Source of the DNA: Candidatus Binatia bacterium
GTDB lineage: Bacteria; Desulfobacterota; Binatia; HRBIN30
Direction of reading: 5' to 3'
Length of the DNA stretch: 64,000 bases
NCBI GenBank assembly: GCA_038245295.1
Contig: JBBRSP010000002.1
Span: 128,001-192,000 of the forward strand
Shown one piece after another: positions 6,466-8,549 of this stretch. Below the pieces are notes generated by a model. The model made no database searches. It saw only the letters and a program-made list of their open reading frames with translations, and was not told the DNA's origin. Made by a program: the position numbers and the translations under genes. How positions within the stretch are numbered: the first letter of the stretch is position 1; each line of letters begins with the position of its first letter.

Positions 6466-6518
6466 CGTCGGGCCATCCAGCGTGCCCAGCGGCTTTGATG
6501 AAAAGTTAGAAAACCCGG

Positions 6519-6594
6519 CTTCGACGGGCTCAGCCTGAGCGGTCCTTGGTCCTCGATCGCGAGCATCAGCCCGCTCGCCCTGAGCCCGTCGAAG
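6519..6594. repeat. REP-like inverted repeat (CTTCGAC.AGCTCAG family) between rnpA and yidD
   Basis: Arms 6519-6542 and 6571-6594 are 21/24 reverse-complementary; a related element lies at 40473-40549. Confidence 0.8.
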
Positions 6595-6610
6595 GATGAG
6601 CTTGTGCACG

Positions 6611-7156
6611 TCAGGCGTCGACATGGAGCCCCAGCAAGAAACTCAGATCACGGTGCACTTCGGCGCGACCGATTTCGGCTGCCGCCGAGCGCGCAATGAC
6701 GACGATGTCACGTGGCTCGAGGAGGTGTTGGTGATGACGAAAAAACTCGCGCACCATCCGTTTGATCCGGTTGCGCACGACGGCGTTGCCGACCTTTCGG
6801 CTAGCGGTGATGCCCAGACGTGGCTCTGTTGCACGGGTCATGGCCGTAAGCACCACAAAGGTCGGTCGCGCTCGCCGTTGGCCAACCCGCTCGGTACGCA
6901 GGAACTCGGCCCGCTTGCGCAGGCGACGTGAGTTCGGAAAGCGGCGGTCGACTAACCGCGGCGTTGGCTCGGTTGCTTCGGCGGGATCGAGACCGTAAGG
7001 CGCTTGCGCCCCTTGTCGCGTCGGCGCTTCAGTACGGCGCGGCCGCCGGGAGTTGCCATACGGGCGCGAAAGCCGTGAGTGCGTTTGCGACGCCGGTTGC
7101 TCGGTTGAAATGTTCGTTTCATCACTGCCTCTCGGAGGTTTGGCCGTGCCAGCCAT
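6611..7156 (-). CDS. rnpA: Ribonuclease P protein component; conserved domain ~6611-6950, only canonical in-frame start upstream of the domain is ATG 7156 (overlaps all of rpmH)
   Basis: [37 protein letters not shown] (RNR motif), DIVVIAR; start uncertain. Confidence 0.9.
6952..7122 (-). CDS. rpmH: 50S ribosomal protein L34 (56 aa; not in ORF track)
   Basis: Hand translation: [64 protein letters not shown]-like sequence upstream. Confidence 0.97.
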
Positions 7157-7198
7157 TTCTCACCACGGCCGACGATCTATTCGTTTCGGCGGCACGCA

Positions 7199-7226
7199 GG
7201 ACTAACAAACAAAACCCTGCCGTCAA
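7199..7226 (-). promoter_or_regulatory. Putative sigma70 promoter of the rpmH/rnpA operon
   Basis: TTGACG-N16-TAGTCC on the minus strand. Confidence 0.4.
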
Positions 7227-7315
7227 GTCGTTTGACCCCAAAAGCAGGTTCGCATGCCCTTGCCCTGAGCACCGTCGCAACGTCGAGATTTTCAGACGAA
7301 CGGGTCGCCCGCTGC

Positions 7316-7546
7316 CTAAGCAGCGGCAGCGACGGCGTCCGTCTTCTTCGCGTATTCCTTGGCGTAGTGCTCGACGCACAAGCTGCGACGTGAGCGTGGC
7401 TTGTGGCAGTTCTCGGCGGTGCAGATCGTGTAGCGCGGCTTGCCAAGCTTGCCTTTGCGCCACTGGCGATAGTGCCGGTCGCAGTAGCCCTTGGCGCGGA
7501 CGTCCTTCTCGCAGGCCTCAGCCTTGCACGTTCCTTTGTTCGACAT
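7316..7546 (-). CDS. Small basic protein with two C-x4-C-x9-C-x2-H motifs (resembles myxobacterial vegetative protein VegA-type zinc fingers)
   Basis: CKAEAC-x9-CDRH and CTAENC-x9-CVEH; GGAGG SD overlapping the gpsA end. Confidence 0.75.
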   Translation of the reverse strand: MSNKGTCKAEACEKDVRAKGYCDRHYRQWRKGKLGKPRYTICTAENCHKPRSRRSLCVEHYAKEYAKKTDAVAAAA

Positions 7547-7550
7547 GTTC

Positions 7551-8549
7551 CTACCTCCAAAATTCCGGCTTGGCCTGGCGGCGCATCAAATCGCCGACCA
7601 CCTGCGAAGCGGGCTTGCCCTCGTGAAGCAGAAGGCGGACCTGTTCTGCAATGGGCATCTCAACTCCGGCCTGTCTTGCCAGGCCTGAGACACTGATGCT
7701 GTTGCGCACCCCTTCGGCCACTTGACGGGTGCTGGCCATGATATCGTCGAGCGTTTCTCCGCGTCCTAGTCGTAGCCCGACCGTGCGGTTGCGGCTCAAA
7801 TCACCGGTGCAGGTAAGCACCAGATCACCGACACCGGAGAGGCCGGAGACGGTCATTTCGGCGCCGCCCATCTTGGCGACCAGCCGGCCGATCTCTGCAA
7901 CGCCGCGGGTAATCAGCGCCGCGCGGCTGCTGTGGCCGAGCCCAAGCCCATCACTGACGCCGGCGGCAATCGCGATGACGTTCTTCACCGCGCCACCGAG
8001 CTCGACACCGACGCAATCATTGCCGGTGTAAACGCGGAAGGTGGGCGCTTGGAACGCCGCCTGCGCCGCCTGGGCGGCAGCCTCCGAGCATGACGCGGCG
8101 ACCACGGCGGTCGGCATCCCGGCGGCAACTTCTTTGGCAAAGCTCGGACCGGACAGCGCCACGACGCGCCCCGGATCGCCGAACACTTCGGCGAGAACCT
8201 CGGTCATGCGCTTGAGCGAGCCTTCTTCGACACCCTTCGAGGCCGAGACAACCACCGGGGAGCCGCTGGCGAAGGGCCGCGCCGCGAGCATGACCTCGCG
8301 CATGACGTGTGACGGACTGGCCGCCAACAACATCTCGGCCCCGTGCACCGCCTCTTCCATCACGTTGGTGGCGCGTAGGCTCTCCGGCAACTCGAGCCCA
8401 GGCAAGTAGGTGGAATTTTGTCGCGTCTCATTCAGCGTGCGGCACAACTCGGCGTTGCGCAGCCACATGGTGACCGCATGGCCATTGTCGGCCAACAGCT
8501 TCGCCAGAGAGGTGCCGAAGCTGCCGCCGCCGATCACACCAATTCGCAT
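7551..8549 (-). CDS. gpsA: NAD(P)H-dependent glycerol-3-phosphate dehydrogenase
   Basis: GGGSFGT Rossmann motif, LSGPSFAKEV, GGAVKNVIAIAAG, GDLVLTC...SRNR. Confidence 0.96.
   Translation of the reverse strand: MRIGVIGGGSFGTSLAKLLADNGHAVTMWLRNAELCRTLNETRQNSTYLPGLELPESLRATNVMEEAVHGAEMLLAASPSHVMREVMLAARPFASGSPVVVSASKGVEEGSLKRMTEVLAEVFGDPGRVVALSGPSFAKEVAAGMPTAVVAASCSEAAAQAAQAAFQAPTFRVYTGNDCVGVELGGAVKNVIAIAAGVSDGLGLGHSSRAALITRGVAEIGRLVAKMGGAEMTVSGLSGVGDLVLTCTGDLSRNRTVGLRLGRGETLDDIMASTRQVAEGVRNSISVSGLARQAGVEMPIAEQVRLLLHEGKPASQVVGDLMRRQAKPEFWR

Follow-up and report, generated by a model that had tools for sequence, protein, structure and literature searches.

How is the protein subunit of RNase P started at a locus where its reading frame encloses a whole second gene and offers no ordinary start codon next to the conserved domain? 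In the window (the whole stretch of 64,000 nucleotides analysed here) the minus strand carries, in this order, a 76-aa gene (7546-7316), rpmH (7122-6952), rnpA, yidD and yidC. rpmH lies entirely within the rnpA frame, which is +2 (equal to -1) relative to that of rpmH. A preliminary description had proposed either a Thermus-like gene-in-gene in a distant lineage or a non-canonical reinitiation or frameshift coupling L34 and RnpA. The features concerned are the following:

7199..7226, minus strand: promoter-like site of putative function, with TTGACG at 7226-7221 and a degenerate -10 element
7160..7171, minus strand: conserved leader motif CGG(C/G)GGTG(A), ending 7 nt before the rnpA ATG; GGTGA at 7164-7160 is a candidate weak Shine-Dalgarno sequence
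6611..7156, minus strand: extended form of rnpA, 181 aa, ATG 7156 to TGA 6611, from a stop-free translation
7124..7156, minus strand: rnpA codons 1-11, encoded in the leader 5' of the rpmH start
7128..7132, minus strand: Shine-Dalgarno-like AGAGG, read from the sequence, with a putative role for rpmH; relatives have a purine-rich block
6952..7122, minus strand: rpmH, ribosomal protein L34, 56 aa, ATG 7122 to TAG 6952 (PF00468 and TIGR01030 over cut-off)
6950..6964, minus strand: junction at the rpmH stop, read in rnpA as codons ACG (65), CCG, CGG, TTA (68) and GTC (69)
6632..6940, minus strand: RNase P protein domain with RNR motif, codons 73-175 (PF00825 and TIGR00188 over cut-off)

rnpA and rpmH at the locus

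The rnpA frame is free of stops from 7156 to 6611 and reads the rpmH start as GAT GAA, both as first described. Its in-frame ATG, GTG and TTG codons are codon 1 and then just codons 101, 102 and 106, all within the domain, which bears out the earlier statement that none stands between ATG 7156 and the domain. Solved RnpA structures match the 181-aa protein from residue 70-77 onward only, so that a start at codon 101 would cost the first 28 residues of the domain. Near-cognate codons 5' of the domain are ACG (codons 4, 14, 25, 46 and 65) and ATT (codon 16). At the junction TTA codon 68 overlaps the TAG of rpmH (TTAG/TAGTC). A canonical start overlapping or directly following the rpmH stop (ATGA/GTGA/TTGA or TAATG) is absent at the locus, and the nearest near-cognate codon there is ACG, three codons before the TTA.

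The domain itself matches PF00825 (Ribonuclease_P; residues 73-175, 99.1 bits against a cut-off of 22.3) and TIGR00188 (79.4 bits, cut-off 38.35). It is the sole PF00825 match in the genome. rnpB is present, too (230.9 bits, over cut-off), and no match to PF08745 was detected in the genome, which is 96.6% complete; RnpA must therefore be made from this gene. Arg, Pro, Ala and Thr abound among the 72 residues of the extension. The same extension is present in most of the best 120 database matches, predicted proteins about 170-245 aa long, whereby the full-length query favours long forms. One such extended homologue (P0031) is named Candidatus Binatia, as is the record of the closest titled L34 (88% over 50 aa).

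In rpmH the Ribosomal_L34 domain occupies residues 1-44, and an alternative start, GTG 7125, stands one codon before ATG 7122. L34 comprises 49-56 aa in the class loci inspected, compared to the 44 positions of the Pfam model; the protein described here has a 12-residue C-terminal tail (6952-6990 of the window, minus strand) with an (I/V/T)P(P/A)K motif conserved in nearly all class loci inspected. The 76-aa gene at 7316-7546 (minus strand), directly upstream of the rpmH promoter, is Cys/His-rich and consists of two similar halves. It had no Pfam or NCBIfam match, and the atlas cluster closest to it bears the automatic name 'Vegetative protein family protein' (0.96, with a recognition score under the threshold of the tool). 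Downstream, between rnpA and the yidD core, positions 6501-6612 of the window hold a dispersed palindromic repeat with 67 blastn matches in its own genome (72-97% alike among the 25 matches listed, self match aside) and high depth in other sequencing runs. This repeat sits within the long yidD ORF, which starts at ATG 6624 and overlaps the rnpA end; the YidD domain begins at residue 58-61.

The open frame and its leader among relatives

Taken alone, the open frame at this locus is within chance, since 7769 of 20037 57-codon windows (38.8%) in the long coding-like ORFs of the genome are stop-free in frame +2; it is non-random only across relatives. For this comparison 125 loci were fetched from the 245 genomes of the class with a match. 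They include all 40 matches of the first search, the rest being taken by best score or by hand, and rates across the class are thus not those of random samples. All loci except L023, which lies at a contig end, were scorable (124 of 125).

In the own family of the locus (f1), the layout recurs in 22 of 24 genomes: the domain is in frame +2, the frame is open through rpmH, and an in-frame start stands upstream. No stop interrupts the frame within rpmH in any of these 22, and no ATG or GTG overlaps the rpmH stop, so that neither of these two objections to nesting applies in the family. A canonical start near the domain is lacking in 19 of the 22. The two exceptions, L011 and L031 of one genus, have a long spacer with its own ATG and no match to the leader promoter. 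Families f2 (5/5) and f3 (2/2) are nested as in f1. Metagenomes were scanned with a pattern that joined the 3' motif of the leader to rpmH codons 1-7 and was blind to the rnpA frame. The scan gave 30 loci, of which 28 of the 29 scorable ones look nested; the remaining one is unrelated and has a start of its own. After removal of one locus without the domain, the unrelated one and six with a repeated rpmH, 22 distinct loci were left. Together with the 29 genomes of f1, f2 and f3 they form the nested set of 51 loci; groups were set by family and frame.

All 51 loci of this set have an open frame +2, vs 31 of 54 in ten other families. A synonymous T that would create a stop in frame +2 is found at 0 of 429 positions in the nested families compared to 32 of 448 in the ten others. 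This avoidance spans the whole of rpmH and is seen already within codons 2-15 (0/160 vs 16/169). When the counts are collapsed to family-codon columns (here with f10 and f11 added to the nested set) they become 0/58 and 24/107; raw or collapsed, the counts come from kin and overstate independence. In f4, a sister family of the same taxonomic order that serves as a natural control, the rpmH stop is overlapped by a GTGA or TTGA in all eight genomes. An open frame together with an upstream start is found in none of them, and two carry stops in the frame. Across relatives with their own start the +2 frame is open in 41 of 70. A codon-shuffle null, which predicted 9-15 open frames of 45 where 43 were seen, was dropped because it underestimates openness in the controls, and the empirical control was used instead. 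Judged from these comparisons, nesting is conserved and selected across the relatives, and the check suggested in the preliminary description thus turned out in its favour as regards the stop-free frame and the upstream ATG. The reduced synonymous variation in rpmH that it had foreseen was not seen: variation at four-fold sites, which is near saturation, gives ratios of 0.80-1.19 in nested loci vs 0.79-1.16 in the others. Selection on the amino acids of the extension is consequently not seen.

The leader points in the same direction. A motif, CGGCGGTG, was located without reference to frame or ATG, a unique match with at most one mismatch being required, and is present in 28 of 42 loci with the promoter. 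In all 28 an ATG stands exactly 7 nt behind it. The distance from motif to rpmH falls into seven classes (41, 56, 68, 71, 80, 83 and 116), all of one phase; leader length differs among relatives by multiples of 3 nt only. Six free length changes would hold the phase about once in 700 cases by chance. Leader ATGs in f1-f3 are found 30 times in frame +2 and 2 and 3 times in the remaining frames. The conservation of this ATG and of its phase is the strongest sign that ribosomes may start at ATG 7156 and read through the leader. The rnpA start lies 34 nt upstream of the rpmH ATG here and 31-109 nt upstream in relatives, and both starts are preceded by motifs of their own. With GGTG(A) of this motif the 16S rRNA tail, as we presume it to be, would pair at a spacing longer than optimal, which fits a weak start; the tail motif was not found in this assembly.

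A candidate promoter had been placed at 7199-7226. A scan for consensus promoters returned no site, but TTGACG at 7226, 104 nt before the rpmH ATG, stands where relatives carry TTGAC[A/T] followed by a TGTGGT-like block.

As to RNA structure, we consider as a hypothesis a stem that would form between the motif and the stretch preceding the rpmH Shine-Dalgarno sequence. Hairpins are predicted in many single leaders, and the two arms of the proposed stem are 81% paired vs 27-59% when slid, a value inflated by the metagenome rows, which were chosen on the 3' arm. Covariation of the stem was no higher than in shuffles, RNAalifold found no consensus leader fold, an Rfam scan of 6500-7600 gave no match at E <= 1, and the leader of this locus folds no better than shuffles (z -0.25). 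We consider it rather unlikely that the leader is a regulatory device in which the motif pairs with the stretch just 5' of the rpmH site and so links the two initiations at a distance. Strong ATGA/GTGA coupling would then be counterselected, leaving this route as the sole source of RNase P protein, and lineages of the class would flip repeatedly between nested and coupled states.

Further families of the class vary this layout. In f10 (L051, L066-L080) an ATG stands invariably at -10, in ACGGATGA; 14 of 16 genomes have an open frame, 13 of 16 look nested, and stop-creating changes are absent (0/114). This ATG is kept in 16/16, including three genomes with their own rnpA start, and may therefore double as part of the rpmH ribosome-binding site. 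L078 and L079 of this family begin rnpA with a GTGA and show stops in the frame; in L074 an insertion is accompanied by a GTG start. These are apparent reversions. In 5 of the 8 genomes of f11 (L081-L088) the rnpA frame is open and has a TTG at -13 in phase with it, a third spacing in the class. Ten loci of f7, f14 and f19 (L050, L052, L061, L064, L112, L116, L120, L121, L123 and L124) have rnpA in frame +1 of rpmH. Nine of them lack a canonical start near the domain and seven have a TTG about 124 nt inside rpmH; in f7 an ACG directly after the rpmH stop aligns with the ATG of the relative L115. These loci apparently start rnpA in a second unusual way within the class.

Proposed route to RnpA and competing explanations

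We consider it probable, on the comparative evidence above, that an extended RnpA made from its own weak start at ATG 7156 is the sole or main product. A single transcript from the promoter at about 7226 would then bear two separate initiation sites. Most ribosomes would bind the purine-rich sequence in front of ATG 7122 and translate L34, while a minority would load 34 nt farther upstream at ATG 7156, behind the weak GGTGA, translate 11 codons of the leader, pass through all of rpmH in the -1 frame and enter the RNase P domain. The product would be a 181-aa RnpA whose 72-residue extension is, to judge by its composition, probably unstructured and would be tolerated rather than functional. Selection would act on the open, in-phase frame and not detectably on the residues of the extension, and a low ratio of RnpA to L34 would be the likely result. 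As to origin, a plausible path leads from a coupled GTGA ancestor with rnpA in the -1 frame through a frame open by chance, as in about half of the controls, to the gain of the upstream ATG and finally to the loss of the junction start. A midpoint-rooted tree of L34 plus the RnpA domain, with 124 loci and many weak nodes, favours neither an ancestral nesting nor several separate gains in the class and gives no direction of change.

Translation from ATG 7156 may also be one of two routes, to which we assign a small additional probability. Ribosomes would then use the upstream ATG and, besides, reinitiate at a weak codon on the rpmH stop; RnpA of normal length would be made, too, and may dominate. 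A CTG overlaps the rpmH stop in 30 of the 51 nested loci and a TTG in seven, ATG and GTG never. In the 37 loci where rpmH ends in TGA, the preceding base is accordingly C (30) or T (7) and in no case G or A; the background at four-fold sites is 42% C, 37% G, 15% A and 7% T. This bias may equally be read as avoidance of strong ATGA/GTGA coupling, and few independent lineages stand behind the count. Furthermore, an open upstream start together with a canonical start near or at the domain occurs in 10 of 124 class loci, and the public annotation of a relative gives a short form starting at the junction (P0115, 115 aa). On the other hand, 14 of the 51 nested loci, including the one described here, end rpmH with TAA or TAG and have no NTG at the junction, and 16 of 43 nested genomes have no CTG, ACG, ATA, ATT or ATC near it.

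The same 16 genomes, devoid of a near-cognate junction codon, weigh against a further explanation by which RnpA would start at a non-canonical junction codon only, the open frame and upstream ATG being by-products of GC-rich codon use or of a leader RNA motif. The class probably does use such starts: in L114 and L118 a stop interrupts the frame, a canonical start is missing and the junction has ACG or ATC, and families f7, f14 and f18 show apparent ACG, ATC or CTG starts. Background openness is high (39% in the own genome, 41/70 in own-start relatives), and f10 retains its -10 ATG without need. What this explanation leaves unaccounted for are the stop-creating changes (0/429 vs 32/448), the leader indels in threes and the absence of the feature in f4; moreover, no junction codon is conserved, ten different tetramers being found in 29 genomes. 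We therefore hold it to be quite unlikely.

A -1 ribosomal frameshift during L34 translation, yielding an L34-RnpA fusion, would suit the -1 frame of the RNase P domain and the conserved Pro-Pro-Lys tail of L34 near its stop. A scan with heptamer and three hexamer patterns found no slippery motif in 45 of 51 loci, the six matches sharing no conserved site, and a shift inside rpmH would need neither stop avoidance in rpmH codons 2-15 nor a conserved leader phase, which makes this explanation very improbable. The reinitiation and frameshift alternatives raised in the preliminary description are thus both disfavoured by the sequence evidence. That an assembly error in a genome of 129 contigs conceals a normal start is an almost negligible chance, since a contig of run X1, possibly the source sample, is identical over 6514-7500, a contig of run X3 from a different study covers 6812-7257 with 18 substitutions and zero gaps, and the layout recurs in dozens of relatives.

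Comparison with Thermus and occurrence outside the class

In Thermus, rpmH is fully nested in rnpA, with one Shine-Dalgarno sequence and both starts in AUGGAUG, and was called the only described bacterial case in 2022 (PMC9841429); Thermus rnpA-rpmH and comS in srfAB figure as two earlier out-of-frame examples (10.1101/520783). The likeness to our locus is close: rpmH lies wholly inside rnpA and out of frame, RnpA is extended at its N-terminus, and the relative frame is the same, the Thermus start 4 nt upstream being in frame +2 like the one at -34 here. The initiation sites differ, however. Thermus uses a shared Shine-Dalgarno sequence and starts 4 nt apart, whereas here the distance is 34 nt (31-109 in relatives) with a conserved motif of its own, and 10-36 rnpA codons are encoded in the rpmH leader of this locus and its relatives. 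Expression has been demonstrated in Thermus, while the extended RnpA described here is predicted from sequence. Since layout and frame agree but the shared Shine-Dalgarno sequence does not, we class the locus as a variant of the Thermus system in a different phylum; of the earlier proposal, the gene-in-gene stands, with a start farther upstream than in Thermus.

The extension of RnpA in Thermus thermophilus is reportedly dispensable, as Feltens et al. are said to have found in 2003 for rpmH in rnpA.

With ordinary rpmH-rnpA cotranscripts the locus shares the order rpmH-rnpA-yidD-yidC and the need for little RnpA, and f4 uses the usual GTGA/TTGA; it differs from them in having no canonical start between rpmH and the domain, and an open frame across rpmH that is under selection. 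PMC9945441 describes GUG/UUG starts and RnpA as kept low, about 130-fold below L34 in E. coli. The AUGUG/GUGUG sites of E. coli (PMC9841429) and comS in srfAB (10.1101/520783) likewise yield two frames from one mRNA stretch, but the two proteins of our locus are conserved housekeeping ones whose starts lie well apart. The available parts of PMC2566870, PMC12439589 and PMC4919922 contain nothing on the overlap. In the literature covered, to which subscription journals and supplements did not belong, there was no report of such nesting for Binatia or other taxa outside Thermus.

Outside the class, the 30 loci with the best scores in the phylum's other classes include two that look nested (L207, L214), and 20 further loci from there, picked for long open frames, include two more (L238, L239), a set which gives no rate. 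All four have no canonical junction start and an upstream ATG. The frame of L239 is open at 31% GC; in L237 the frame is open and there is no canonical start anywhere. Among titled bacterial loci (61 scorable of 80), two look nested without an own start, a Binatia record and an ambiguous Acidobacteriota record. In an Acidobacteriota clade 7 of 29 scored loci lack a canonical junction start. In all seven (L286-L288, L290, L299, L304 and L307) the junction is CTGA, the frame is open and a TTG is conserved at -25, immediately after the -10 box. They may be either nested or CTG-started, since the frame is likewise open in 14 of the 15 own-start relatives with rnpA in frame +2.

The precedent in Thermus lessens the surprise of this layout. 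For annotation it means that gene callers must pick between an RnpA of 115 aa and one of 180 aa. The class holds natural controls in its nested, coupled and reverted sister lineages, so that the origin of gene overlaps becomes testable. If the proposed route is true, full out-of-frame nesting of two essential genes would be no oddity of Thermus but a repeatedly used means of limiting RnpA in relation to L34.
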